Notes under the pieces: generated by a model
The model's database searches: none
What the model was told of the DNA's origin: nothing
Seen by the model: the letters and a program-made list of their open reading frames with translations, nothing else
Source of the DNA: Ginglymostoma cirratum
Lineage: Eukaryota
Assembly (NCBI GenBank): GCA_024137785.1
Contig: JAHRHZ010000025.1
Coordinates: forward strand, 22,670,921 to 22,734,920
Length of the DNA: 64,000 nucleotides
Reading direction: 5' to 3'
Made by a program: the position numbers and the translations under genes
Part shown: piece after piece, positions 6,340 through 59,156 of the stretch
Position numbering within the stretch: position 1 is the stretch's first letter
Layout: every line of letters begins with the position of its first letter

Positions 6340-8045
6340 AGCTACTTATTAAATTCAGATTGTCTCTCAGCTATTAGTGTCATGCCTGTCTGTTGGATCA
6401 GTTACAGTTGTGTATAGACTGTCAGTCATCGAGTAATCTTTTAACTGGAAACTATTGCATTCCACTTTCCACGGCCCTTGCAGTATTTACTTTAGAAAGG
6501 ATATGAGAGCATTCATATACCAATGTGACTGGGCTTTCTTCGAAGCTTATTTGTTTACACGTAAGCGTACATGTGCTGAGGTCAGTGTTTATGGGGATGA
6601 AATTGTTAATCCAATCTTTTTCCACTGACATTCACAGAAAAATAACACAAACTCTTTTTGAAGACTTCTCCCCTAGTCACTGTTACTTGGCCTGAAATTT
6701 AAACACTAAGTCCTGGCAGTATTTTCCAAGTCAATGCTAAAGTTATACTTCCACAGTGAAAAATTGCCTATGAGCCCATTGCACACTACTATTGATGAGT
6801 CTAACTCCCTGCTACTTTTCCAAAAATACCCTTTTGCATATTTTCAAGGGAAGAAGGCTTCATTGTTGCTTCCAAACATTTATTATACTGTATATAATTT
6901 TTTTTAATGTCTCTGGAAGTGTAGTATTACCACACAGCTCACCTCTTGACAATATAAGCTGGTGTGATACACCTGATGGTTTTTTCCACATACAGCCTGA
7001 GCCACCTACACAGCCTAGCTGTGAGTAATCTTGTACTGAAGATTTCAGCGACTAACAGCCTGTAAATTTTGAACATTCAATGTGGTCTGAAGTCAGGTCA
7101 TACAAACTGGGTTTGAGTCAACTTCAAGCAACTGTTAAGTTTAATAAAAGTGTGTGAAAATTGAGGGATGGAGGAATTATGTGCCCTCAGTTATAAGCAA
7201 TGAAAAAAGACTGAATCAAACAACAGCAATAATATTTGGTTATAGAAAACTCCACAGACCTGGGAAGTGTGACAGAGTATTGGACACTTCAGGGACGTAA
7301 GGCACACGATACTTCATTCATGACTCTGCCAGTGGTGCTAATACAACTTACCAAGATCAGAAAAATAAAATAGCGTAATATGGAAACAAAGCTGTGGTGT
7401 GGTAATCTAACATACATGGAATGGAAGGTGCACACAATAATACTCTCCCAGGGAGCAAAATAAATTGAGACGAGATTACGTGTGGGGTCACAAGCCATCT
7501 GTATATTTATAACAGAGCTTTATTATCTGAACTATCTTTTTATTCCGGGCAGGTATGTTATAAGCTTCACATAAAAGGCAAGGGAGTGGAGAATTTTGCT
7601 CCTGTTGCATGACTTGGAGATGTTTACAGACTCCTGGCAACACTTTAATGTTCAGTAAAATATTTATTTTTATTCCTTCAATTCCTGAAACCTATAACTA
7701 TCTAAAAAAATGTTAACCCATTATCCAAAAAGTCATGCTATTATTGAAGCATATACAGCACAGATGGAGTATGGTAAAGTTAATCTAAAATCACTATGCA
7801 CGTGAAAGTGATTTAACTTGCTCAATGAAATACCACGTCTAAAACAATTTAGTCATGCGTTAATATGAATTAAAACAAAACTGACAACATTGTTTGTGCT
7901 TTTCATTGAAACAAAATAAACCTTACTGACTTTCATCCATACAATTTTTTGGCGCACTGAAGTTTTCATGTATTTTGCCCCAAATTCTATCAAAGATTTT
8001 AAAATTGCTTCTCCAGTATGTACCCACGTAAGAGTAGAAGGTTTC

Positions 8046-8268
8046 AGAGATAGTAGGAACTGCAGATGCTGGAGAATCTGAGAGAACAAAGTGTAGAGCT
8101 GGATGAACACAGCAGGCCAAGCAGGATCAGAGAAGCAGGAAGGCTGACGTTTCGGGCCTAGACCCTTTTTCAGAAAATGAAGAATGGTCTAGGCCCGAAA
8201 CATCAGCCTTCCTGCTCCTCTGATGCTGCTTGGCCTGCTGTGTTCGTCCAGCTCTACACCTTGTTATC
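8046..8268. mobile_element. Inverted pair of Penelope pseudo-LTR termini (long imperfect palindrome)
   Basis: 8085-8175 is the reverse complement of about 8178-8268 (gagctggatgaacacagcaggccaagcag / ctgcttggcctgctgtgttcgtccagctc); same sequence as the 3' end of the element at 45525-45650. Confidence 0.85.
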
Positions 8269-9584
8269 CTACATTTAGAAGGTAATGGAGTTAAGGGTAC
8301 TGACTACACTAAAGGCAAGTTGCATGCTAGAAGTACATTTAATCACACTGTAGCTTGGCTTAATTTGATAGTGCTGGTGATAGAAAAATTGATGTCAAGA
8401 TCTCACATTAATAAATATTTTTCAAATACAATGACTGGATGGTGTAGCTGATAAATTAATTTTACAGATTTTGCCGTCAGTGTTCATGGTTATTAAGAAG
8501 TATAGCAGACAGCAACTTCTGATATAGGCTTGTGGAAATCAGGTAGTTACTGTTTGATATGTCCTACACTTTACATCTTCAAGGGCTTCATACAGATGAT
8601 GTCTCAACAATCACATATGTGGAAGCGCAGGAAATTGTGAAAATTCCCATGAGATCCCTACAAAACCGATCAGTAAAAAACAGGACTACCATTCCAGAAA
8701 ATAAAATGTTTACCTTTGTGGTAAGTATTAATTACTGTCAAACAACCTCACTGATACCAACAGTTTACTTTTACAAGTGTGGAACTTCATCCTTCAGCTT
8801 TTCATACAGTTGAATATTTAAAACAATTAAAACTTCAAATGAGAAAAGAAAGTGCTGGAGAAACTCAGCAAGTCTGGCAAGATCTGTGGAGAGAGAAACA
8901 CAATTAATGTTTTGAGTACAATTCAAATATGTTTTCATTTATAAGTTTTTGCAGTTTGTTTCATCTTTCTATTAACGTGATCACTATTTCACTTCAAATT
9001 ATTTGACCTCCCGTGTACAATTTGCATTAGATTAAATAATTTAGCTCATATTTCCTGATTTAGAGTCCATGAACTTCAATAATGCTTCTTCACTGAATCG
9101 TTCAGAAGACATACTATTACTTGCACTGCTCATACAGGTTTCAGATCTGTGCAGTGCTTTTTTGACTCTCCAATAACCACATATCGCAATGTACAAGCCG
9201 AAGGAAAGTCTAGAGGCAAATATGAGTGCTTGAATGGCACATACCATTCTTTCACTGCTACCTACAAATTCCAGGCTAGGTAGACAGTGATAGTACTTGC
9301 TGTTGCACAAAGCCAGATGAAGCAAGGTGTTCATAGTTTGATATGTGTCTTCTTAGTTTAGCTCAAGTAACTGCAGAATTATGGAACTCTCAGGCCTGTG
9401 CCAGTTCCCTCTTTCCAACTGGAGCTATCTCACGCAGCCTCTACATTCTTCATCTTCAAATGGAATCAGATATAGGAAGCTGCATTGAACATTAAGCTTC
9501 TCATTGCACAAGGGTAAAATCTGCTAGTGCCTAATCTCCTACAGATGACCTGCTGGAAGTGTGAGTGTGTAGCCATTGAAAGGA

Positions 9585-24148: not shown

Positions 24149-24463
24149 TGCAACGACTAAAAACAGCAAAATAACCTCTATATACTCTACCCTCCCATCA
24201 CATGGCACATAAAAGTTTTCTTCATTCTTTCATTAGTCACTTCAGACAAACTTGTCCTATGCTTCTTTCCATTACCTGCTGTGCCTTTTTTAATAGGATC
24301 CGTTTGAATAGAATTGAAGCAGAGGCATGTCAATAAATGGTCATTGCTGCAAAAGCAGAATCACCTTGTTTTCTGTATAAGCAACTGATAACACGTCTGT
24401 TCCTTCATAGTAAAAGTGCTCCTGAAATCTCCACACCAAATTCGAGAAAACTCATCAGTTTAC
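24149..24463 (+). repeat. 315-bp direct duplicate of 26227-26541 (derived copy, inside a SINE)
   Basis: Near-identical sequence from tgcaa.gactaaa to ctcatcagtttac in both copies, same length. Confidence 0.95.
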
Positions 24464-26226: not shown

Positions 26227-26541
26227 TGCAAGGACTAAAGACAATAAAATACTCTCTACATACTCCACCCTCCCATCACATGGCACATAAAAGTATTCTT
26301 CATTCTTTCATTCGTCACTTTAGACAAACTTGTCCTATGCTTCTTTCCATTACCTGCTGTGCCTCTTTTAATAGGATCCGTTTGAATTGAATGGAAGCAG
26401 AGGCATGTCAATAAATGGTCATTGCTGCAAAAGCAGAATCACCTTGTTTTCTGTATCAGCAACTGATAACACGACTCTTCCTTCGTAGTAAAAGTGCTCC
26501 TGAAATCTCCACACCAAATTCGAGAAAACTCATCAGTTTAC
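26227..26541 (+). repeat. Source copy of the 315-bp duplication
   Basis: Same sequence as 24149-24463 but with non-SINE flanks. Confidence 0.95.
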
Positions 26542-28840
26542 CCAAAACAGTTCAGCAGCTACCCACGTACTAGATAAGAACATAGATAATGGTCACTACA
26601 AGCCAGAACAGGGTACAATTTGTGAAGAAAGAAATCTATTTGTAATTTTCCATTCATTCCAGAGGAAACAACTATTTTCACTGTCTCGCATCCAACTGCA
26701 GCTAACATGCTAATGGCTGAAATACGTTAGCTGATCTGTTCTTTAAAAAACAAAAAAATCCACATTGAAACCACATTACAACATCCAAGTACTATGTTTT
26801 TATTTCATTTATCGTGTAAGAACAGCAAAAACCCCAATGAGGAATTACTGAGTAATCATATCAGTTGCCAGCTGGAATGCATGTAACACTCATTGAAGAT
26901 TGAATTGAAACCTGACCAGATATGAGGCCTGGGCCCACTCTTAAGTCACCAGGCCGTGAGAATAAGATCAATCCCCGGCAGCAGCTGTTAGCTGTGAGGT
27001 TCTTAGATAAACTAACACATTTCTGATTTCTCCGTCTTTAATGTAACTGCACCAATAAGTAACGAGGGGGTATAAAACTGTTAGCTGTACAAACAAATGG
27101 AAGATCAACAAGCCAACGGAGAAATAATCTGCTCAAATTGAAGCTCTAGAGTTACTTAAAAAAGGTGTTAATGAGAATTGGCAGAGGACCTTTGCTTAAG
27201 AGCACTATTCGTTCTATGTTGGACAGTAGCATTGGTAACAGAGAATGAAAATGTCTGCTTTTCAAATAAATAAAAGGATCAGCATTTTGATGAGAAGTTG
27301 ATTTAAGTTTTGGGCTCTTAATATGAGTGATTCAAGCTGTCACTATGCCAAAATGATGAGGGTCTACTGTCAACATTAAATGTGCTTTACCCAATAGGAT
27401 CCTAGCTTCTTCTGTAAAAAGTATACATCGTTGTGAAAATTCACAAAGATTTCAGATGACTGAGAGGTTTGAATATTTACTGCTGCATTGCGTCACGTTT
27501 TTCACAAACCCTGAAAGGACTGATCCACTTGCTCCTATGTTGTACTGTGTGTCATATGAGAGGTTTCAAGTCCTCACAAGCTGCATGCAAACATGTAATG
27601 CTGTTTCCCTGGACAGGGGAAGCCAATGTGTTGGATTATTTAGTTGACATAGCAACAACAACTGACAAAGAAACTTTCAATGAGATAGACAGTATTACTC
27701 ATCCTCACAAAATCCATTTAAGAACTGGAACAAGATAGCCTAGGAGGGCCCACATGGAGTAAACTCATCTGTGATATCAAAACCAAGTGCTCTGCATAAA
27801 ACAGGTGGCAAATCTACTTGATAAATTGGTATACCGAGAACATGATTGGTTGGACAAATGCTGCTGTTCCACAGAAGCATTAGAAACCACATCTTATGCT
27901 GATCACAACAACTCTGGTTAAACCTGGGGGGCAGCACTTAATCCACTATTTGAGGTCCTGAAACTAGCTGTTAGTTTGGCTCTGCTCTAGGTTTGGCTTC
28001 ACCATTGTGGACATGTGACTGCAAACGATGGAATTGTTTGTTATCATTTAATTATCTACATTTCTGTCATCTCCATGACTCACCTACAACATCTTAAAAT
28101 GAATTAATAATTGGAAAGTACTTAAAAATCTCTCATCAGAGCTATACTCCATAGCATTTCAGACTGGACCCATGAATTTTAATCAAGGTCATTTTTCTTT
28201 AATGTAATGGCTACCTGTAGTTAATATCACCACTTTTTAACTTTATTACCTACCTACTCTGTAAACTTGAATCCACCCTCTGAAGCAGTGTTAAATTGGA
28301 ATTATGCTACAATTCTATTTTTCACATTTGGTCAGAACATTGACCAGGGAGGAAATGGTATCTCTGCAAGTTTGCACCATCACAAAAACAGTTCATTTAC
28401 CACTGAACTATTGGGAATGGGGTGGGGGATGGGAAAGACCCGGAGCTGCACATTTTAAAGCTTCACTCTGTAATCTACAATTACTACTCTCAAACCTACA
28501 AATCAAACAACTGTATAAAGTTATTTTGAAGTGTACACAATTAGTAGTACAAAGTTTTAAAACAAGAAAGCTCCCAGTGGGTAAAAGAATGACATTTTTG
28601 AAAGTGGTGCAACCAAGTTAGATAACGAATTGCGCTTATTTCTAACATGGAACCTAAAACAAGATGTATTTTGTCTCCAATCCGTGCCTCTGCAACTTTG
28701 CCACATGATACAGAAATATCAGGCACATCTGACTTCTTAGCATCGTTAAATAGATCCTTAGGACATGATGTTGTTAATGGCAGAAAAATCATTTAAATGA
28801 TTTGCTTAAATTTGAGGTGGTCACAACTTGTAATAACAAA

Positions 28841-34910: not shown

Positions 34911-35014
34911 CTGATTTTTTTCTGATGAAGGGTTTAGGCCCGAAACATCGAGTTTTCCTGCTCCTATGATGCTGCTTGACCTGCTGTGTTCATCCAGCCC
35001 CATGCTTGTTATCT
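34911..35014 (+). mobile_element. Short Penelope terminus insertion inside a SINE
   Basis: Flanked by the direct repeat ctggttcacta (34900-34910 and 35015-35025); contains CTGATGA-agggt-ttag-gccc-GAAAC-ATC. Confidence 0.85.
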
Positions 35015-35243
35015 CTGGTTCACTAATGCTCTTTAGGGAAGGAAATCTTCCCATATTGTCTGGTCTGGCCTACATGTCACTCCAGACCCACAGCAATATG
35101 GTTGACTCTTGCATCAGCCGTAAATTTGGCCTAACCAGTGACACCTACATCCTGGGAATAAACTTCTTTTAAAAAAAAACCTTGCGGGTTTTGTTGCCTT
35201 GCTGTGACAGCCTTCCACCTTAATACACCATATGCTGAATATA

Positions 35244-35485
35244 GGGGATAACAAGCATGGGGCTGGATGAACACAGCAGGTCAAGCAGCATCATAGGAGC
35301 AGGAAAACTTGACGTTTCGGGCCTTTTTTGATGAAGGGTTTCTGATGAAACATTTCTGATGAAGGGTTTAGGCCCGAAACGTCAAGTTTTCCTGCTCCTA
35401 TGATGCTGCTTGACCTGCTGTGTTCATCCAGCCCCATGCTTTTTTTCCCCGGATTCTCCAGCATCTGCAGTACCTTTTATCTCTG
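35244..35485. mobile_element. Penelope inverted-terminus insertion with hammerhead motif
   Basis: 14-bp TSD atatgctgaatata (35230-35243 and 35486-35499); an inverted arm followed by a forward terminus with CTGATGA...GAAAC GTC at about 35356-35383. Confidence 0.88.
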
Positions 35486-36519
35486 ATATGCTGAATATAA
35501 TTTATTCAAATTGCCAGCTTTAGTGAAAAAATAGGCGTGAAAGTAGAGGGGAAAACAATTCTTTCCAATGAAAGGAAAATATATCCAACTCTAATTTCAT
35601 CCATCATCCATCAGGAAAATACTTCATTTAAAACAAGAGGACTTGTATTAACTAATTCCTTACCTTATCTTCAGGATGTCTCAAAATTCTTAAATTTCAA
35701 TTATTTCAAACATGAATTAGTGACTTCTGATGAACTACAGAGGCATTTGTTTCCTTTATAATGTACAGGATTGAAAAAATTACAGGTAAATGTTTGTTTT
35801 TATTATGTTCACTGTAAAGTGTTGAAATGATGAACAAGATAGAATATAAGAACTAGGTGGTAGGTAACAAGTTATGTCTTAAAATATGAAATTAAAGATA
35901 AGAGAACTTTAGTACAGCAAGATATCTTTTGGTCCATCAGGTTTGCAGCAATGGTGGCTCTTCAGCTAGAGTTTTCCAATCTTAACTTCCATCCTTCATT
36001 TTTAAATACCTAAACAATGATCTCAAGGGACTATTGGATCATTTCCACAATAACCCTTCTAAATTTGAAACATGCTCTGATTTACAAATGTTATTCTTCT
36101 AATGTTAATTCTGCAGTGATCATCCCTTATTAACAAATTAATAATCCATGGAAACAATTGCTGGTGATGAACTTTTCAAAGTAACTTTAAATGTCAAAAA
36201 CTTAAACTGAATCTTTCTCTGTCAAATGGGGCTGCATGCCGATTTTCAGAGAAAATCAATTTGCTATTTGAATTTTGGATTCACATTCTCTTGAGATTAT
36301 TAATCTAGAGAACTATTTTCTCAATACCTTTCTCTATAACTTTGCATTTTTATTGTAGTGCACGTTGCTGGAAGGGACTGACACCAGGGTAACTACACTT
36401 TGATTTTCAGCTCGTAAGCTCCTTTCCATTATTGGGCATTTACTGAAACTTGTCTCTGAAGTAATTGATCGAACAATAAGTAACACATTTAAAAGGTTCC
36501 ACTGGCTGGTATCCCTTCT

Positions 36520-42584: not shown

Positions 42585-43300
42585 TGGGGTACCTCAGGGA
42601 TCGGTGCTTTGACAGCAGCTATTCACCATAAATTATTTAGATGATTGAACAAAATGTAATATCTCCAAATTTGCAGATGACAGAAATCTAGGTGGTAGGG
42701 CAAGCTGTGAGGAGGATGCAGAGATGCTTCAGTGTGATCTGGACAAGCTTAATGAGTGAGCAAATGCATGGCAGGTGCAGCATAATGTGGATGTGTGGTA
42801 TCTATTTTGGTACACAAATGAGAAAGAAATGAATTAGAAACAGAGAGGAGAATATTCAAGAAGCCCTGGGTCTCTTTGTTCACCAGCCACTGAAGGTAAG
42901 CATATAGTTGCAGTAGGTAGTAAAGACAGCAAATGGTATGTTGGCCTTCATAGCAAAAGGATTCAAGTGCAAGAGCAGGAATGCCTTGCAGCAATTACAC
43001 AGAGCCTTGGGGAGACCACACCTGGAATATCGTGCGCAGTTTTGGTCTCCTTATTTGAGGATGTTCTTGCAATAGAGGGAGTGTAGCGAAGATTTACCAA
43101 ACTGATTCCTGGGATAGCATATGAGCAGAGGTTAAATCGCTTGTACAATTTCAAGAAAGAGTTGGATATAACACTTGGAGCTGGAGGGGTCATAGGATGT
43201 GGTGGGAAAAACAGGAACAGGCTATTGAGTTGGATGATCAGTCATGGCTATAATGAATGGCAGAGTAGGCTCAAAGGCCTGAATAACCTCTTCTTATCTC
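42585..43300 (+). mobile_element. CR1 LINE fragment
   Basis: GVPQGSVL, ISKFADD, ANGMLAFI and RPHLEY motifs, with an internal deletion and CR1-like tail. Confidence 0.88.
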
Positions 43301-44334
43301 CTGTAAAAGGAGAACTACAACTTTTCCAGCCCAGTTCTACGTATGCATCAAGAACATGGGTTGGGAACTGCTTTGTATGGATAGTGCAGAAGAGAGATAT
43401 ATTTCTTCCATTTTGTTACTTTTTTTTAAAAAAATTACTTCTTTCTTTAAAGGTAGGAAAAATGCAGGTCTGATTCCACAGGGTGTGGCAGCCCTGTGGT
43501 ATTCTACTCACACAATTACCACTCTTGCAGATAAAACGGTTTATAGTTAATTAAAATTAACTTCATTAATTAAAGTTAGGAATCCAAGCAACTGACCAAT
43601 TTCCCTCTGAAGCTGAGGGAGTGATTTTTATTGTGTCGTCTGAGTCCTTGACAGACCAAGGACTATACATGGGACCATAACTACTGAACCCAGCATGGCA
43701 GAGGTAGGTGATGACTGTGGCATGTTCTGCATTCACTCATCTGACAGTAAAACTATCAGCCTGGTTTACTTTCCTCATTAAGGCTATTTCAATGTTATCC
43801 ATCAACTGAAAGGGAAAGCTCAGGCTTTCACATAAAACCTTAACATATAATTTGATTAGTTTTAAGTGATAGACTAACTCTTCTTTACAATGCTAGACAT
43901 CAACACTCTGATAACAACAAACCATAAATTATGACACTGCGTCTGATGGAGTTAGAAATTAGAACAATATTTAGAAGATGGTATAAGAGAAATAAAGGGT
44001 AGAGAAGACACATTAATTCTCTTCTAAATTAGATAAAAACAAACATCTTCAAGCAATTTGAATTCCTTGTTGGTATAATTGCATCAAATAACCTAGAGTA
44101 TTCAATCTGCTTCTTCCAACAATCAGGTTATCAGTCTTCTATGGGTGAGAAAAACCTATTGATGTGGTGAGGCTGGTGGTTTTGTCGATGGTGATGTACT
44201 CGGACAAAGTGTCACAGAGGATGGTAGCTCTGGAGCATGTGGCATTACTGTGCTGAAGATAAAGTTGGACAATGGCTGAGGCAAGCAATGACTGCAGTTG
44301 CCAGGCACACACTGATTCACATTGAAAATCATTA

Positions 44335-45655
44335 CAGCTCACCTATCCGTCGCACCCCTTCCCACTGACCGATCCCTACAGACCCCCACCTGCGTCCACC
44401 TATCACCATCCCACCAACTTGCCCCCAGCCCCACCCCTCTCCATTTATTTATTTCTGAGGCAGACACCTTATATTCTGCCTCAGGAACTTACAACCCAAT
44501 GGCTTCAACATAAAGTTCACCATCTTCAAACTCTCCCCACCCCCAGCCCATGTCCAGCTCTCCCTCGGAGGATGATGCATTGGATCCGGAGTTTGGTGGG
44601 GTGTGTGGAGTCCTCATGTACCACCCCACTAACCTCCGGTTCCAACGCATCATCCTCCAGCACTTCCGCCATCTGCAATCTGACCCCACTACCAAAGACA
44701 TTTTTCCCTCCCCACCCTTATCTGCCTTCCGGAGGGACCACTCTCTCCGTGACTCCCTTGTCCGCTCCACACTCTCCACCAGCCCCACCATCCCCACCAA
44801 CCCCAGCACTTTTCCCTGCAACCGCAGGAAGTGCTACACCTGCCCCTACACCTCCCCCCTCACCCCCATCCCAGGCCCCAAGAAAACCTTCCACACCAAA
44901 CAGATGTTCACCTGCACATCTGCCAATGTGGTATATTGTAGCCGCTGTTCCAGATGCAGCCTCCTCTACATCAGGGAAACCAAGCGGAGGCTTGGAGACC
45001 ACTTTGTGGAACACCTACGCTTGGTTCGCAACAAACGACTCCCCCTCCCACTTCTTGGAATGACATGTCCATCCTGGGCCTCCTCCAGTGCCACAATGAT
45101 GCCACCTGAAGGTTACAGGAACAACGCCTCATACTTCGCCTGGGAACCCTGCAGCCCAATGGTATCAATGTGGACTTCACAAGCTTCAACATCTCCCCTC
45201 CCCCGACCGCTTCCCAAAACCAGCCCAGCTCATCCCCGCCTCCCTAACCTGTCCTTCCTCCCACCTATCCACTCCTCCCATCTCAAGCGCACCCCCCACT
45301 CCCCACCTCCTACCTACCAGCCTTAACCTGCCCCCTTGACCTGCCAGTCTTCTCTGGACTGACCTACCCCCACCCTAACTCCCCACCTACTCTCACCTTT
45401 ACTGGCTCCATCCCCGCCTCTTTGACTTGTCTGTCTCCTCTCCACCTATCTGCTCCTTTATCCATCTTCCATCCGCCTCCCCCTCTCTCTCTATTTATTT
45501 CAGAATCCCCTTCCCCTCCCCCATTTCTGAAGAAGGGTCCAGACCTGAAATGTCAGCTTTCCTGCTCCTCTGATGCTGCTTGGCCGGCTGTGTTTATCCA
45601 GCTCCACACCTTGTTATCTCAGATTCTCCAGCATCAGCAGTTCCCACTAACTCTG
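44335..45655 (+). mobile_element. Penelope-like element (GIY-YIG endonuclease region plus terminus)
   Basis: ORF 44550-45326 has PCNRRKCYTC and FTCTSANVVYCSRCSRCSLLYIRETKRRLGDHFVEHLR; C-rich 3' region; terminus ctgaagaagggtccagacctgaaatgtc; possible TSD aatcatta. Confidence 0.92.
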
Positions 45656-45660
45656 AATCA

Positions 45661-46242
45661 TTATTAACACTTGGCCACCACAAACCAGTTAACCTTGTGG
45701 TAATTTTTCTGACACCACCTACTTAAAACTCAAAAAACAAGGTCAGCAGATTATGAGACCCCACTTTCATGATTTTCAATAGGAATACAGACTGATATCA
45801 AGTGAGTATGTCTTTCTGCTTCACAGGAAGTTTCTTTAATTCCTGATCTTGCTTTGGAACACCTGCACTGCACTGCACTGCACTGCACATGCACAGACTC
45901 CATCAAAATCCCCACCTGCTAGCACTTCCAGACCGGATCATGCCTGACTGCTTCCAGCCAGAATTGAAAGCCCCTTGGGGCCCACCTTCCTGGATAAGTG
46001 GAAAGAAGAGTGATAAAGGGAGTGGTATTTCACCAGCAGCCAAGACCTCCCAATTATTCTACATCTCTCATGTCTCTTTACAGAACCAAACAAGAGTCAA
46101 GCTCAATGGGGTCTTGTCGCTTCTCTGATTCTGCCAAGCCTGTTCACTTAGCTCTGTTTTAGCTAGGAAGTACGTAAGGACAGTGGGAAGCGTATTCATA
46201 CATTCACACACCTCACTGAGCAGGTCACATGGCATTTGGTTA
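45661..46242 (-). pseudogene. Degraded 28S rRNA fragment beginning exactly at the R2 target site
   Basis: Colinear with antisense 28S: cttggccaccacaaaccagttaaccttgtggtaatttttctgacacc, agtggtatttcacc, cctcccaattattctacatctctcatgtctctt, agagtcaagctcaa, ggacagtgggaa, ggcatttggtta (= TAGCCAAATGCC). Confidence 0.9.
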
Positions 46243-49200
46243 TTTTGAAACACTTAAGTGCGTGCCTTTTCCATGTTTTCACATTGCTCGACATTGGAAT
46301 ATATTTCAATTCATGTAACCACACTGCATGTTGAGTAGAGGCCTGCCATCAGAGATCACATTCGGTCAGGTGACCATTCCAAATTAACAAGGGGATGTTT
46401 TGTGCTAGAGGAATTGAGGCTGAGCACTGTTCTGGGGTTAGTTGACTGAAGACATTGACATCATTTGACATAGTCTACTGTTGAGCAAATAACATTGAAC
46501 CATGCAAATTAGCTCTTCATTGATGAAGTCCTGCATTATGATGATACTGAAGCCATGATTTTTTTCTTTTCCTCTTTACTGCTACCATTATTTTGTGACC
46601 TATGTTGGTGTCTACTCCACACGGCCTCAGACAAAGCAGCTTAGACTAGCACCCGGAGCCAACGTTAGTCATCTCCTATTCAGAGCTGGGTCTTGCAATA
46701 TTATTACCCCACCCTGTTGTTGATGATTTGAAGCTACTCTAGCGGCAGGGATATTAGTCAGTCTTAATGTTTGCCAGGTGAATGATTTGCATTTGCAGGA
46801 ATTGCATGAGTAAATTTTTTTTTGAGCCACTTGCCTCTTGAATCCATCACAAAGCCACCAGGAACTTGGTGGCCCCTGTAAATTCCATGATCTCTTGTAC
46901 AGGCTCTTTACATTTCAGGTTTTTATCCTCCTGTGTCTGTTTTAGTGCCTTGTCATTATCCTCTTAACAGACTATGACATCCCACTGCAACTTCTTGACT
47001 CTTCTAAATATTATGACAGGTTTTTAGTGAGAGCCACTGCTCTAACTAGAAACTAGGCTAAACGGCAAAGTCCAGCCATCTTTGGTGGTGTATCATTAAT
47101 AATTGGCCCAAGGGCTTCTTGTGGCACTTTATTCTTGTGTTCTCAGCACCCAGAAATATGCAACAGTTTCATTAGGAGCCTTGCATTTCTAACAATTTTT
47201 AAAATCATATATGGTTGACCAAGCTCGAGGTTCAACCCTTTAGGGTAAAGATTGCATCGTAGCAAGAAACTGTCAATCAGATGAGACAAATTAAATTATA
47301 TACAGATTGGACCCATGTTTTGAGACTTCATCATATTTGTGGTATATGTCATGACCATATCATGGCTTTTGGAAGTTTAACCACATTGCAAATTCCCATT
47401 CCCTCCACAGTGCACATTTCTTCATTGGTTTCATCGCAGAGATATCGACCAAAATCAATGTCCCTTCAGGAAATGGAGACAGTAAGGACTGCAAATGCTG
47501 GAAGCTAGCCCCCAACACCTCATCTTCATCATGGACTTCCAGTCTCTGTACACCTGTACTCCCCACATGGATGGTCTAAAAGCCCTGTTCCTTCCTCTCC
47601 CATAGGCCAAACCAGTCCCCCTCCACAGATACACTCATTCGCTTGGCAGAACTGGTCTTCACCATCAACAATTTTTCCTTTGATTCCTCCCACTTCCTAT
47701 AGACCAAAAGGGTGGCTATGGGCACCTGCATGGGCCCCGGGCTATGCCTGCCTCTTTGTAGGATTCGTCGAACAGTCCCTCTTCAGCAACTACACTGACA
47801 CCATCCCTCGCCTCTTTCTCCGCTGCATTGATTACTGCTGTATCAGTGCTGCCTTGTGCTCCCGCAAGGAGCTCAAACAGTTCAATGACTTTGCCAACAC
47901 CTTCCATGAGCGCCCTCAAATTCACCTTCCTCCCCTTCCTGGACCTCTCTGTCTCGATCTCCAGTAACTGACTCACCCCGACATCCATTTCAAACCCAGT
48001 GACTCCCACAATTACCTCGACTACACCTCCACTCACCCACCGTCCTGCAAAAAAATGCTATCCCACACTCCCAATTCCTCTGACTTCGCTGCATCTGCTC
48101 CCAGGATGAGGTGTTCTACTCTAGGAGTTCTCAGATATCCTCCTACTTTAGGGACTGTAGTTTCTCCTCCTCGGTTATTAAGGATGCCCTCAACTGCATT
48201 GCCCCCATTTCCCATGCTTCTGCCCTCAAACCCTCTCCACCCAACAATGATAGAGCTCACTTAGCCCTCACGTACCACCCCACCAACCTCCAACTACAAC
48301 ACATCATCCTCCTACATTTCCGCCACCTACAATCAGACCCCACCATCAAAAAGATATTTCCCTCCCCACCCCTGTCCGCTTTCCGCAGGGACCGTTTATT
48401 CCACGATTCCCTCATCAGCTCCACACTCCCCACCAACCCCCTCCACCAAGCCCGGTACCTTTCTCTGCAACCACAGGAGGAAATACACCTCCCTTCTCAC
48501 CTCCATCCAAAGCCCTAAATAATCCGTCTAAGTCTGGCAGAGATTCACCTGCACTTAGCATCTGCGCTCTGCAGGTACCAACCAACATGACCTTCCAGTT
48601 GCAATGCACCTGAACTCACCTTCCCACTCCCCCAGTGACATGTCCATCCTTGGCCTCCTCTGCTGTCAGTGTGAGGCCAAATGTAAACTGAAAAAACACC
48701 TCATATTTTGCCTCAGGAGCTTACAGCCCATTGATCTGAATATTGACTTCACCATCTTCAAAATCTCTCCACCCCCAACCTGTCCATCTTCCAACTCACC
48801 TATGCATTCCACCCTTCCCATTGACCAACCACGATAACCCCCCTACCTGCATTAATCTATCTCCATCCTGCCAACCTCCCCTCAGCCCCACCCACTCCCT
48901 CTATTTATTTCTGGGCTCCCCTACCCCCTCAAAACGTTTCAGCCTGAAACACCGACTTCCCTGTTCATCAGATGCTGCGTGACCTGCTGTGCTTTCTCAG
49001 CTTCACATTTATTTTTTTTCTCTTCAGGAAATGTTCAATTTCCCAGAGCGCTAACAGTCCCTTGTTGCTGTGTTGCATTCATCTCAGAATTGGAATGGCT
49101 CCTGAATCACTGAGTCTATGGACGTTTTGAGTGCTTCACGTTTGAATTAATCACAGGTAGAATTCGCACTTCAAAAGTTGGCCTGCTGATCCCCCCACTA

Positions 49201-49600
49201 GAGTGTTTGGGGTGCAAAGTGTAAGAACTGGTGTGAAGAAGCTTTGGTGATTTGATGAGCATTTCCTGTGACACTTCAGACAGGATCTGATGGAAACGCA
49301 ACCTGGTGATCACGAGAGCCCTCAGCACCTCAATTTTTTTGTGCTGGTTGGTGAGCAGCTGCTCTCAGGCTAACCACCCATGCTTTCTGGTTCCAATCAT
49401 CCTCTGCCATGCCTGCCCAGGAATCTATACAGCCACCTAGGTTTATCTATATCTAAGCTGGTGGGATATAGGATGCAGCTTTGCCCTGAAGCTCCCACTT
49501 CTTGCCAAGGTTGTAAAGGAAGATCTATTCTTATGGGTGATGAGGAAGCCTTTTATCTTTGTGGTATTAGTGGTTATGCTTATGCTATAATGATTGGACA
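46243..49600 (-). mobile_element. R2-clade non-LTR retrotransposon, degraded 3' half (RT end, zinc knuckle, restriction-like endonuclease, 3' UTR)
   Basis: Minus-strand motifs in R2 order: HKKIEVLRALVITRLRFH (about 49300), GGI.RP.F (about 49190), LLRCNLYP (about 47250), C*KCKAPNETVA/ISG..RIKCH (about 47120-47200), KP(V)IIF..DV.V (about 47000), GFVMDSRGKW (about 46830-46860). 3' end abuts 28S; 5' limit approximate. Confidence 0.82.
47476..49021 (+). mobile_element. Penelope-like element (RT plus endonuclease fragment) inserted in the R2 ORF
   Basis: FIMDFQSLYT, VAMGTCMGPGYACLFVG and LTYHPTNLQLQHIIL motifs; 12-bp TSD cttcaggaaatg at 47464-47475 and 49022-49033. Confidence 0.92.
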
Positions 49601-49689
49601 AGCTTAATGTTCAGTTCCAAACCAGCATGCCAGACACTATACTGTCCACAAAGGTTACAGAGAAACAGCTGTAGACAGTCTGCAGAGTG

Positions 49690-51245
49690 ATAAAGGCAGT
49701 TAAAATGAGTGGAAAAAAGCTTGGCAGATGGAACATGATGTAGGAAAATGCGAGGTTTTGCACTTTGGCAGGAAGAACACAAGCTGAATAGGATTTAAAT
49801 GGAAAAAGACTGCAGAAAGGTGTAGCGCAGAGGATTTGGCAGCGCTTCTGTATGAATTACAAAAAGCAAGCATTCAAGTTCAGCAGTTAATGAGGAAGGC
49901 AAATGGAATGTTGGCCATTATTTCAAAGGAAATGGAGCATAAAAATAGGGAGGATTTGCTAAAATTATACAAGGCACTCATTAGACCACACCTAGAATAC
50001 TATGAACAGTTTTGGTCCCCTCAGAAAGGAAATAATTTACTGTCACTGAAGACAGTCCAAAGAAGGTTCACTTGGTTCATCCCAGATATAAAGGGATTTC
50101 CCATGAAGACAGGTTAAGTAGTTAGACATAGACTCATTGGAATTTACAATTGGAATTAACAAGATTCTTAAGAGACTTGACATGTTAAATGCAGAAATGT
50201 TTTTTGAATCGAGGACTATAGAGTTTAATTTCAGGGTGTTAAACCGTTATTAAATTAGAAAGGGTGCAAAAAAGATTTTACAAGGACTTTACCAAGACTG
50301 GAGGGTTTGACTTAAGAAGAGGCTGGGACTTTTTTTCCTGGAGCATAAGAGGCTGATGGGAGTGACCTTATAGTGGCTTGTAAGGTCACGAGAGGCAAAG
50401 ATAAGGTCTTTTCCCCCGGGGAGGGGAATCTAAAACTAGAGGGCATAGTCTTAAGGTTGAGACAGGAAAGATTTACAAGGGATCTGAGGGGCAACTTTTC
50501 TACAGAGGGTGGTGCACATAAGGAATGAGCTGCCAGAAGAAGTGGTAGAGGTCGAGTATAGTTACAAGATTTAAAAGGCATTGGGCAGGTACATGGATAG
50601 GAAAGGTTTAGAAGGAAATGAGCCAAATTAAGACAAATGGGACTAGTTCAGTTTAGGAAACCAGGTTGGCATGGACGAGTTGGGCTGAAGGGTCTATTTC
50701 TGTGCTGAATGACTCTATGACTAGTAAGGGATTGCCCACTTAAGTCAAAGATAATTAGGAATTTATTCTCAGAGGGTAGTGAATCTATGAAATTTCTTTC
50801 AAAGAAAGCAAAATACAATAAATGTTGGAAATTGGAAATAAAAAGTGAGAGTGGCTGAAAAACCCAACATGCCCTGGAACATCCATGGAGAGACAAACAG
50901 AGTTAATGTTTCCAGTCCAAAGGCCCTATTCCAAAGAAGTGCCTTTGGTGTTGAAACATTAACTTTGTTTCTGTCTTCATAGGTGCTGCCAGACCAGCTG
51001 CGTTTCTCCGGTAACTTATTTTCATTTCTGTAGAATTCTTTACCGCAGAGGGCTGTTAAGGCAGGATCACAAACATCATTCAAGGCAGAGAGGCAGATTT
51101 TCAACCTGTAAGGGAATCAAGGGGTATGGGGAAAAGGAAAGTAAGTGAAATTGAGGATTGCCAGATTAGACATAATCTATTTGGATGGTACAGCAGCCTC
51201 GATGAGCCTTCAAATAGCCTACTTCTGCATCTATGTCTTATGATT
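49690..51245 (+). mobile_element. CR1 LINE with a nested CR1 3' end (about 50255-50722) and inverted Penelope-like termini (about 50800-51025)
   Basis: KANGMLAII...LLKLYKALIRPHLEY..QFWSP; nested copy ends gactctatgact; outer copy resumes gaattctttaccgcagagggctg. Confidence 0.85.
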
Positions 51246-54200
51246 TATGGACAAGAAAATCTCTCATTACTTCTACATATATACATGACTACTTTAAAAA
51301 TAACAACAATATCATCTGACCGGCGGTCAGTGGGAGGAATTGTTAGCTCGTTGTGATTTGAAAATAATATACCAAATAGAAGTTATATTGACAATTTGTG
51401 ATCAAAGCCTACAATTTTTTTTTAAAAACTGTAGCAGGCTTAAGAACATGGATAACTGGTGCAACATTACAGGAAACAGAAATGCAGAGTTGGAAATTGT
51501 TTAGAAATTAGGCTTTCACTTGTAATGTGAGTTTTTCTAACACTATTATGTTCAAACTGACACAAAGATTTCTTTTAAAATTACTGCCTTTGGTGTCAAA
51601 ACCTTTTAAAATGATCATTACTCTCTTTACTTGCTCAAGTTTAGACAATGTTACCAGAATAGCATGTTAAAATTTATTTCCTTCTTCCAACAAATAATAG
51701 TGTATAATTTATAAGCTTTGCATAGACAATCCAAATTAATGAGGGAATAGAATACAATTTTGTCACCTAGATATGACTTAATATTGACACATCTATACTT
51801 AAAAAAGATAAAAATCAACACAGGCAATGAAATTGGCAAAAAATTAAATTCCACGAAGATTAGATTACAGTTATCCATCATAAGCTTTACACCTCACAAA
51901 CAAGGTAAATTGGATAATGCTTTGTCATCCCCTCAGGAGTATTTATTAATTGTACGTAGTATCTGGTCATAACATAATGACCAGAAAAGAATACTTTAAG
52001 AATTAATAAAAACACGAATGAATGAAACTAAATGAAAATGCACTGAGATGCCATTTTAATGGAAAAAAATCCTTACTCCAGTGTTATTTCGCCATATTAT
52101 ACAATGTCACAATAAACCAACCTTCTTGGACACCTGACAATTAAACAGTATGTCAATGAAGGAGTTAACCTTTTAAACATTAAAATAAATGTTTTTAGCT
52201 TTTTTTAAAAAATAAATTTTAGATATCGACAAAACTTAAAACAAAATAAACAAACTGTCAAATTTTTTGAATCCTTACTTCAACTGATCAGCTGCTTATT
52301 CCCAGAAATCATCCACTTACTTTTAAAAGCAGAACTTGTACTTCACAAAGTTAACAAAAAAAAAACACGACTTCTATGAAAATTCTCCACAGTGACAAAT
52401 GCTGGTGCATAGTGCAACATTTCAATACAGTATGCTATGCAAGAAAAGGTGAACGGTACAATTGTTGACATTCCCTATAACTGTAAATGTATTCAACGCT
52501 TGCATCTTCTAAGGTCATTGTCTAGTTTTAGAAATGAATGGTTAATCTCCAAGTATTATTCTTTTAGTGAAAATTTACTTTTGTATACCTGGGTTCAAAA
52601 GCAGTGTATTTAAGAATATCTCATGATTACCTTATCCCCCTCATCAAGTGCAATACAGAAGGCTTTACCACCAAGTGAATTTATGAAATACATAAACTGC
52701 AAGTTTACTGTAAAATAATTGCATTATAAATTAAATCAATTTGTCCAAAAATCCTGCATTTGTTGGAATATGGACAAATGGATGGAAGACCTTTCTGAAA
52801 TTCTGGTTTATGACAGCCTGTGGCTTAATCAAAGAATGCATCTCTCATCCTTTATGTGAAACATTGTCAATCTGTCAGTCAATTCAAACTCTACTTCCGC
52901 CAATGACACCTGGGGAAAAGCAATTTATAAGAACTTAGTACAGGATGAATTAAAAAACTAATTATGGATGCTATACCACTCTAAATATGATCAATTAAAG
53001 GTGGTTACATATAAATCAAACTAGTTCAGAAATTTCTTCGACGTTTTCCTCAGCCATGTACCAAATCCAAATAGGACTGGGTTTTAAAAGAAAAAAACAA
53101 CGGAGATAAAATGATTCAAATGGACATTTGTTGCCATCCTTGGCTCAAGACTTGAGCACAGAATCGACCCTGATGTATATCAGTACACCGCTGACTGCTG
53201 TCAGGGATGCCATCTTTTAGTTAAGTTGTTAAACCAAAGCCCATCTGATCTTTCAAATTGTCTAAGAAACCACTGCTTTAAGCATGGAGAAGCAGTGAGT
53301 TATCTGCATGCAATACTTTTTCCGTTAGCTAATTCGGGGAAAAAAAAAATCATTTATCTCGTGGCTTGTGGCATATCACAATGTACAATTGACTGGCAGT
53401 TTCTCGAAATTACAACAGTTTTTGGACTTGAAAACCATTTCACTGGTCACTCAGTACTTTTGGACATCAAGATCATAAGTTCTTTCCTTCCTAAATATTA
53501 GTTTCCAGGCCTTCTCCTTCTGTACTCAACATCCACAGGTAAATAGACAATAGTAGGTTTTGTCCATTGCATTTTCTCTGTGCATGGATTATTTCTGTAA
53601 GTCAATTAAACATGTTGCAATACAATACAACTAAATTGATACCAACAGCCTTTTTGGTACATCATTTGTGTTGCCTTTTTGGTTATGCAGAAACAGACTA
53701 CACAAGAGCTAGAGTTATCACCATTAAGTTCAGTCTAATCAATAGATGCGTTTTTCCAGAAACACCTGGATAATTTTCCCCTTCTCAAAAAGAATCAGAG
53801 GGAAGATTTCAGCAGCACACACCAAGAACTGAGATCTTCATGGATAGCTCAGCAGCATATAGTTCGATATATTTATTCCATAGTGCAACATGGACCCATA
53901 CCATCTCTTTTTAAGCAAACGGAGCAGCTCACAGGATAAATGCTCCAAACTGGGAAAAATCCACGAACATGCCCAATGAGCTCATTCTGACGATATCACC
54001 TTTTCTAAAAAGTCACTCATACAACAATATACAAGGAGCAATCCAGTTTACATTATTCTTCTGACAGGAATCATTGTGTGCAAATGTTTAAGTTACAAAA
54101 CAATTGAAAGAACTGTTAGAATATTTACTTACAGCAATTGCAAATAATGGACTATTGACATTTTAAAATAACAATATAACATTACTGGTTGGATTTTGAA

Positions 54201-57744: not shown

Positions 57745-58077
57745 TCTTTCATTATTCATTCACAGGATGAGGGCATCGCTGACATGGTAACATTTATTGC
57801 CCATCCCTAGTTAAGGGTCAATCACATTTCTGTGGGTCTGGAGTTACGTTTACAGCAGACCAGGTAAGGATGGCAGTTTCCTTCCCTAAAGGACATTAGT
57901 GAATCAGATAGGTTTTTCCAACAATCAACAGTGGATTCATGATCATCACTAGATTCTTAATTCAAGGTATTTATTGAATTCAAATTCCACCATGGCGGGA
58001 TTCAAACCCAGGTCCCCAGAAGGTTAGCTGGGTCTCCTTAACAGTCCAGTGATAATACCACTAGGCCATCACCTCCC
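57745..58077 (-). mobile_element. tRNA-derived SINE inserted in a Penelope-like terminus
   Basis: Homologous to 2345-2680 and to the + copy at about 34790-35160. Confidence 0.8.
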
Positions 58078-59156
58078 TATTCTGCCAGAGCTGTTTAGCA
58101 TTTCCAGCAATTTGTGTTTCAAGTTCAGGTTTCCAGCTTCTGTTTCTAAATTTTAATCTGCCTTGTCCCAACTGAAGATCAAGCATTCATGTTGCAAAGG
58201 TCTCCAAATACAAGTTGCATTCTCCACCGGTGTGCAGATTGCTGTGCACCATTTTGATGAAGGCAACTCTGACCAACTGTAACGCTTAACACACTGTAAA
58301 ACCCTGAAATTCAAAAGTTTTGATGCTGCCATTCCAGACGGGAATAACTGTGCATAATGCACAAGCACATCTATGCTGGTATGGACTTGTGTAGAGTAAA
58401 TCTCCCTTTATTCTATCCTAAATCTCATTCTAATTTCAGAAGAGCACCTCTGTATGGCAACATTCCTACTTTTAATGTTATCTGTCAGTTAGACGCTGAG
58501 GACAGCAATTTAAACAGTAAAAGGTATTTACATTAAGACTTGATACACATATTTAAGCCAAGTATCATGGCATTTTTGCAATTAGCACTGAAGGGATTGA
58601 GCTGTTACTGATAGAGGTGAAAAGGTGGTGAGCACACAATGTCTACTTCTCCAAAACGACAGTGAATCTCCACTCCAATTAGTTCAGGTTGCAACAGCGC
58701 AGATGGGAGAACTGACACACCAGACTCATGGTGCTCAGGATTTTCTTCTGCAACAGAAATGGGTCAGCTCCACCAAGACGTGGCTCAAATACATAATTTC
58801 TGAGATCAGATGGGGCGCAGGGGTCATTAAAAAATAGCATGTCAAAATATTCATGCCAAAACCAATTTATCTTTGGAATTTCTATAACTTTGCAAGAGTT
58901 AAATGCTTCTTGCCTGTAAACATTGGAATTGTAACATGCTGTATCATTCGGTGACTGGAGTAAAGATCTTGGCAGTGTCTCTTGGAGAGGTGGGTTCATG
59001 CTATAGAATAGTTCTGGTACAATATTAAGTGTAGGAAGGCATCCAGCTATTGTCATGAAGACTGTTAGGTGATGTGGTGAGATTCAAGGAGTAAAAGAAA
59101 AAAGTCGATCAACCCTCAAAAGTCACAGCTTCAACGTTTCTTTCGCATCCCAATAC

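Follow-up and report, generated by a model that had tools for sequence, protein, structure and literature searches.

A decayed R2 retrotransposon joined at its target site to a 28S rRNA fragment outside the rDNA of a shark

How does the 3′ half of an R2 retrotransposon, still attached to a piece of a 28S rRNA gene, come to lie outside the rDNA? This question is raised by a minus-strand locus in a 64,000-nucleotide (nt) stretch of the Ginglymostoma cirratum genome, referred to below as the window. We conclude, with a probability of about 0.97, that the locus is the 3′ half of a shark lineage-A R2, now dead, with its own 3′ untranslated region (UTR), that ∼585 bp of 28S still follow it at the canonical site, that it lies in single-copy DNA and decays without a sign of constraint, and that two Penelope-like elements and a CR1-like cassette came later. 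The features are listed in Table 1.

Table 1. Positions in the window of the R2-28S fossil and of the elements in and around it
Feature	Position	Strand	Evidence or remark
R2 ORF, decayed 3′ half overall	49670-46713	-	interrupted by Penelope-like insertion
R2 ORF: reverse transcriptase end (starting at decayed FADD box) and thumb	49034-49670	-	87/202 identities to P0012, 84/222 to P0010; HMM E 2e-11
R2 ORF, C-terminal part: linker, zinc knuckle, restriction-like endonuclease; stops and frameshifts	46713-47475	-	95/238 identities to P0010; profile HMM E 8e-11
Zinc knuckle	about 47195-47130	-	within C-terminal part of R2 ORF
Restriction-like endonuclease	about 47025-46810	-	within C-terminal part of R2 ORF
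R2 3′ UTR, ∼470 bp, abutting the 28S site	46243-46712	-	ORF alignment stops at 46713; last 48 nt match R2-1_STig 3′ end
Decayed 28S rRNA fragment, R2 target site (+1) to about +581 to +587	45656-46242	-	Rfam RF02543; LSU loci alignment; end set by 8-bp duplication of next insertion
Short (GTGCA)n expansion in 28S fragment	45857-45894	-	sequence; flagged repeat; insertion in Rfam alignment
Penelope-like high-copy insertion inside R2	47476-49033	+	12-bp target duplication at 47464-47475 and 49022-49033
Penelope-like insertion at 28S fragment end	44335-45655	+	8-bp duplication at 44327-44334 and 45656-45663
CR1-like cassette with nested elements, hiding the R2 5′ boundary (limits approximate)	49675-51240	+	repeats elsewhere in window; high depth up to 50300; no Pfam match
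Candidate further remnant of same R2 RT, 14 codons	51292-51333	-	motif matched by 4/5 shark R2 proteins

The open reading frame (ORF) was compared with shark R2 proteins by frameshift-aware alignment, and 38 to 43% identity was found. The alignment of 49629-49025 to the protein P0012 scored 302, and that of 47431-46713 to P0010 scored 224 with 11 frameshifts and 7 stops, both against nulls of 48 to 50. The 466 aligned residues of the fossil carry 16 frameshifts and 14 stops. The reverse transcriptase (RT) is followed by a zinc knuckle and a restriction-like endonuclease homologous to those of R2. The alignments, the profile HMM, and the tree described below uphold the first-pass annotation, which had read these three R2-type parts on the minus strand. 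Single frames gave no matches in PDB and Pfam, because they are too decayed, and the RT piece, used in a word search, matched 0 of 141 candidates. When one frame was searched against 1.84 billion proteins, three matches were obtained. Two were shark R2 fragments present as gene models, one of which matches the solved R2 proteins 9nl2, 9nl3, and 9dou at 5e-49 to 5e-44; the third was a repetitive chance match. Two further protein searches returned shark and other relatives, and the shark gene models recovered include GCB70372, GCB71176, GCB76005, GCC17605, GCC31962, and XP_078059768. The 5′ junction with upstream 28S, the 5′ ribozyme, the N-terminal zinc fingers (three in lineage A), and Myb are lacking, this part being absent from the 64-kb window. 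An active R2 is not what was found: the ORF is broken by stops and frameshifts, and the 28S is decayed and present on one side only. The fossil is without present function.

To place the fossil among R2 elements, 95 proteins were scored against it. The best nine were the elasmobranch set (scores 204 to 462; reversed nulls 33 to 44). In a tree of the fossil and 34 of the scored proteins, built without a non-R2 outgroup and from a comparison set holding no labeled R4, NeSL, Utopia, HERO, or CRE members, the fossil fell within an 11-row elasmobranch clade that includes R2-1_CPu (support 100/99), on a long branch of 1.51. The best matches of the peptide were shark R2. The protein P0009 matched 9nl2, 9nl3, and 9dou at 1e-44 to 1e-49 and matched 8gh6, which we take to be the lineage-D Bombyx R2 protein, at 3e-10. 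The start of P0013 resembles the ORF printed for R2-1_CPu. Shark lineage-A R2 elements including R2-1_STig, R2-1_SCa, R2-1_SAc, and R2-1_CPu were described by Hassan et al. 2026 (PMC13188248); in the parts of that source available to us, R2-1_STig is listed as clade A (Table S7), and the R2-1_CCar entry is given without 28S flanks. By its sequence, the fossil belongs to this living, 28S-specific lineage and not to a lost one, and the idea of an undescribed R2 lineage was not borne out. With R2-1_STig, R2-1_SCa, R2-1_SAc, and R2-1_CPu, as far as the source presents them, it shares the order and sequence of RT, thumb, knuckle, and endonuclease, the conserved 3′-terminal 48 nt, and the joining to TAGCC of 28S. 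Its UTR (∼470) resembles those of R2-1_CPu (478) and R2-1_SAc (500) in length. Unlike these elements, the fossil is dead, lacks its 5′ part, and lies outside the array, and its 28S is ∼21% decayed and ends at about +585. As a separate observation, the Mustelus asterias gene model P0011 (XP_078059768) has an R2 C-terminal piece between zinc-finger arrays; this arrangement is likely an annotation artifact over an inserted R2.

At the join with the 28S, the last 48 nt of the UTR matched the published 3′ end of zebra-shark R2-1_STig at 35 positions, ungapped and up to the junction (hand count). Identity to 28S dropped at 46242. In ungapped comparisons with 11 loci having canonical upstream 28S, the bases upstream of the junction matched at 13 to 16 of 48 and 20 to 29 of 100 positions, and the bases downstream at 29 to 35 of 48 and 53 to 72 of 100. 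Local alignments to LSU loci extended 17 to 34 bases beyond 46242 in 11 of 20 cases. The score of an anchored extension past this position was equalled by 91 of 300 random stretches. A 28S continuing upstream of 46242, corresponding to a shifted site, was ruled out: the extension is at random level, and the same bases match the shark R2 3′ end better. The junction is the canonical R2 site, before TAGCC. The first-pass annotation had placed it at the exact target site and had let 28S similarity end at 46242, and both points stand. It had also described a 3′ UTR of about 450 bp; the UTR does adjoin the 28S, and its length was corrected to ∼470 bp. Folding of the last 88 nt of the UTR yielded a z value of −0.02.

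The bases downstream of the junction were identified as 28S in two ways. The Rfam family LSU_rRNA_eukarya (RF02543) matched 46106-45698 on the minus strand with 123.9 bits (E = 3e-29) and was the only family reaching its gathering score in the window; in a narrower Rfam scan, the alignment to the model covered 46242-46060, starting at the TAGCC site. Against 20 eukaryote LSU loci from genome contigs, the best local alignments showed 71 to 74% identity over ∼555 columns, and seven of the 20 ended at +581 (45662). These data agree with the earlier description of about 580 bp of colinear, heavily decayed 28S directly after the R2, the length being 581 to 587 bp. The first 220 bases matched the shark 28S flank of R2-1_STig at 174 positions, and all 10 CpGs of that flank were lost, seven of them to TG, CA, or TA (hand counts). 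When computed against four LSU loci, 0 to 1 of 16 to 22 aligned CpGs were retained. This is the usual decay of methylated DNA and not the divergence of a working rRNA. The outer insertion did not create the 28S end at about +585, since its 8-bp duplication is intact. Resumption of 28S past the outer insertion was considered and rejected, all five references giving shuffle-level scores. No matches to the 28S piece were obtained by BLASTN in collections of E. coli, plasmid, and phage sequences, nor by motif scans of viral contigs and, for a first motif, of genome contigs. Independently, we observed that the contig L004:1501, filed under a tubeworm endosymbiont MAG, joins non-28S DNA to TAGCC at the R2 site. 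It may reflect contamination with the 3′ junction of a host R2.

The fossil is interrupted and bordered by elements that came later. The first-pass annotation had set 47476-49033 apart from the R2 sequence, and the inner insertion proved to occupy exactly this interval, together with one copy of the 12-bp duplication. It is 69 to 80% like the outer insertion and has very high read depth. The outer insertion gave GIY-YIG look-alikes at a score of 0.96, with the family on 11 to 27% of cluster members, and no Pfam match. It was called Penelope-like because of this protein likeness, and for both insertions the label draws in part on motifs that we assume to be typical of Penelope. The 5′ part of the outer insertion (44332-44660) is rearranged: compared with the inner copy, two blocks have changed places, and there is a 37-bp inverted repeat. 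Termini of the Penelope-like family were seen at 8038-8275, 34919-35486, 45524-45657, and 50857-51008, several of them as inverted pairs. Their CTGA..GA and GAAAC boxes are presumably reminiscent of hammerhead ribozymes; no Rfam match to these boxes was obtained at gathering score in the window. The cassette at 49675-51240 was named CR1-like from peptide motifs that we take to be those of CR1.

On the far side of this cassette, the mean score of the motif at 51292-51333 exceeded that of all 200 random stretches, and its best score was reached by 13 of the 200, in a post hoc comparison and with no profile HMM match. It is suggestive of a further R2 RT remnant. Other candidates were dropped. A second R2 fragment at 44330-44130 was unsupported by R2 alignment, HMM, and Pfam, and weak R2 peaks at 43117-43335 and 57986-58345 (scores 62 and 61; null about 50) were read as chance, with no HMM support. 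Just beyond the 28S end, a 67-codon open frame on the minus strand (44142-44342) has a faint LINE-RT look by eye and no R2 or Pfam match. Elsewhere in the window, a 300-bp direct repeat with 94% identity occupies 24149-24448 and 26227-26526, 2078 bp apart.

The surroundings were searched for rDNA, and no other piece (upstream 28S, further downstream 28S, 18S, or 5.8S) was found in the 64 kb. For upstream 28S, 49660-53000 gave shuffle-level scores with five of five references, and none was found elsewhere in the window. The earlier placement of the R2-28S piece outside an rDNA array stands. In one possible origin, a 28S pseudogene already resided here, R2 entered it at the usual target, and the upstream 28S was deleted later. 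Normal R2 specificity would suffice for such an event, and for R2-1_SCa the available part of Table S2 shows, as judged by eye, upstream 28S over only ∼115 bp and then unrelated DNA. Two events plus a deletion would be required, however, and the window holds no trace of the upstream part. Among the origins weighed here, we consider this one the least probable. As to host genes, one of 35 ORFs had a Pfam match, WDR93 at 27460-27735 on the plus strand (E = 0.0023; 17.7 bits, cut-off 27), 18 kb from the fossil. The Atlas returned nothing usable for this candidate. If the match is real, the window lies near WDR93, whose human counterpart is in the same chromosome band as FES and MAN2A2. With a sub-threshold match at this distance, no host gene is established, and the location in a gene interval given by the first-pass annotation was not sustained.

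Copy number and age were addressed with reads. Sequencing runs of a related organism contain about one fifth of the words sampled, and four of 24 runs were compared at a likeness threshold of 80%. For a related species (organism A), the first run yielded one contig covering 45631-47536 with 87 differences in 1877 bases at a depth of 9.45, and the unique flank showed 27 differences in ∼640 bases at a depth of 11.9. The second run yielded one contig with 86 differences in 1854 bases at a depth of 13 (flank: 26 in ∼600, depth 12.6). In both runs this contig reaches from the 28S across the junction and the UTR into the endonuclease, and the two nested insertions connect to it there as well. The orthologue is 4.6% diverged, like its flank. 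A second contig was detected only near 49450, over a short ORF stretch, and the small runs of organism B gave no cover on the R2 parts. In three of the four runs, contigs had high depth over the 28S bins, dropping in the bin starting at 46254; we read these as live rDNA.

One contig with the depth of the flank speaks against a family of copies at least 80% identical in the related species, bearing in mind that depth is no copy number and that older copies would be missed. The composite repeat family proposed at first pass runs counter to this depth and to the one contig across the junction in both runs at 80% likeness. In its ancient form, an R2 subfamily would have acquired 28S at its 3′ end and multiplied with a tail of constant length, ∼585 nt. 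Copies more than 20% apart would be invisible to the read comparison, long scaffolds carry many of the shark R2 proteins (two of which share one 90% cluster), and fish R2 with 28S-like 3′ UTRs provide a precedent in the part of PMC5035012 available to us. Against it, the depth is that of a single copy across both UTR and ORF in the two runs, with the second contig confined to the short stretch mentioned, and the R2 3′ end of the fossil matches that of R2-1_STig, an element sitting in real 28S. We regard an ancient composite repeat as improbable.

Fossil and flank are equally diverged, which indicates no constraint on the fossil; it is apparently old and neutral-like. The 28S fragment has drifted by 0.20 to 0.25 changes per site, compared with about 0.023 per lineage since the species split. 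The insertion would thus be roughly eight to ten times older than the split from the related species, on an uncalibrated scale. With a pedigree mutation rate of 7e-10 per generation, as given in the accessible text of PMC10587355, 0.20 changes per site would take ∼3e8 generations. This number is too high to be credible, and for this reason no absolute date is given. The orthologue and the heavy 28S drift confirm that the relocation is old, as had been stated at first pass.

An R2-occupied 28S gene supplied the R2 3′ half and the 28S together, in a single colinear piece. As to the route, the reading that we prefer, and to which we give an even chance, is that a read-through R2-28S RNA was retroposed here. 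An R2 would have sat in an rDNA unit and been co-transcribed with it, and the read-through RNA would have extended ∼585 nt into the 28S. This RNA would have been reverse transcribed from its downstream 28S end, either by the R2 protein at a non-target nick or by the protein of another LINE, and the cDNA would have integrated here after being stopped or cut within the RT region. The order of the parts suits this route: R2 is followed by 28S, co-linear and in sense, and only downstream 28S is present. Read-through R2 RNA carrying downstream 28S is a good working template, according to the available parts of PMC6530143 and PMC6795142. R1 offers a parallel in the portion of PMC2718515 available, its copies outside rDNA having up to 14 nt of downstream 28S. 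Nine of 10 named shark R2 proteins are on scaffolds of 40 kb to 4.4 Mb, which is in keeping with frequent escape from rDNA; orphan 28S copies could also house them. Against the RNA route, no poly(A) was found at the 28S end and no duplication flanks the whole piece (longest shared words 6 to 8 bases, none clearly at both ends). The 585-nt tail is also far longer than the 14 nt reported for R1, and R2Ol injected with 100 nt of downstream 28S is reported to have inserted only in rDNA. The 5′ end is hidden by the later cassette, and if the candidate RT remnant at 51292-51333 is real, the 5′ truncation is not original, which again speaks against retroposition.

The missing poly(A) and flanking duplication, and ends that look arbitrary, favor a capture of DNA. 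What was captured here would then be part of an rDNA unit carrying R2, supplied by a circle, through break repair, or by an orphan unit that was later reduced to a fraction of its length, and no transduction would be involved. The candidate R2 remnant upstream, with its internal gap, points the same way. Displacement by recombination is named as a source of non-rDNA copies in PMC2718515, and bird R2 with fragmented 28S is read as remnants of old elements in PMC5035012, both as far as these sources were available. The lack of other rDNA in the 64 kb weighs against capture in that the piece must have been small or have lost both sides. Tentatively, we rate DNA-level capture nearly as likely as the read-through RNA route.

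Strays of R2 with 28S are already known in vertebrates (birds), and the shark fossil is a further case. Many mutated R2 copies of birds have fragmented 28S, or else non-rRNA DNA, next to them (Kojima et al. 2016, PMC5035012). They are likewise mutated vertebrate clade-A R2 with a 28S fragment on one side; the host class differs, and tail length and route are not addressed in the sections available. Actinopterygian R2 families, in the same sections, also bear a diverged stretch of 28S at the R2 3′ end. These families sit in real 28S with shifted 5′ junctions, whereas the shark fossil is a single stray with plain CpG decay. SINE28 (PMC4994717; mentioned in PMC10946416) is, in the text seen, another 28S-derived sequence dispersed in a vertebrate genome. 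It is a multi-copy SINE without an R2 part, whereas the shark fossil shows no amplification. The available parts of PMC10946416 and PMC4994717 cover rDNA pieces in mobile elements. No paper examining dispersed shark R2 systematically for long 28S tails was found, most subscription papers being outside the search.

Shark lineage-A R2 might routinely escape the rDNA by retroposition of read-through RNAs, and many copies with long 28S tails, products of a natural 3′ transduction of rRNA, would then be dispersed over the genome. We think this unlikely. If it were true, the positions of the tail ends would reflect either cleavage of the co-transcript or the points at which reverse transcription can begin. 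The insertion sites, for their part, would preserve a history of off-target events of the R2 lineage used for gene insertion. In the strongest form, all members of an ancient composite family would share one fixed tail of ∼585 nt. As a single locus the piece matters little, being a fossil. It shows that the 28S site and the 3′ end of shark lineage-A R2 were already in use, unchanged, well before the 4.6%-diverged relative split off, and it is usable as an orthologous marker. If many such tails exist genome-wide, they would bear on the end of the R2 template RNA and on the off-target behavior of lineage-A R2 proteins.
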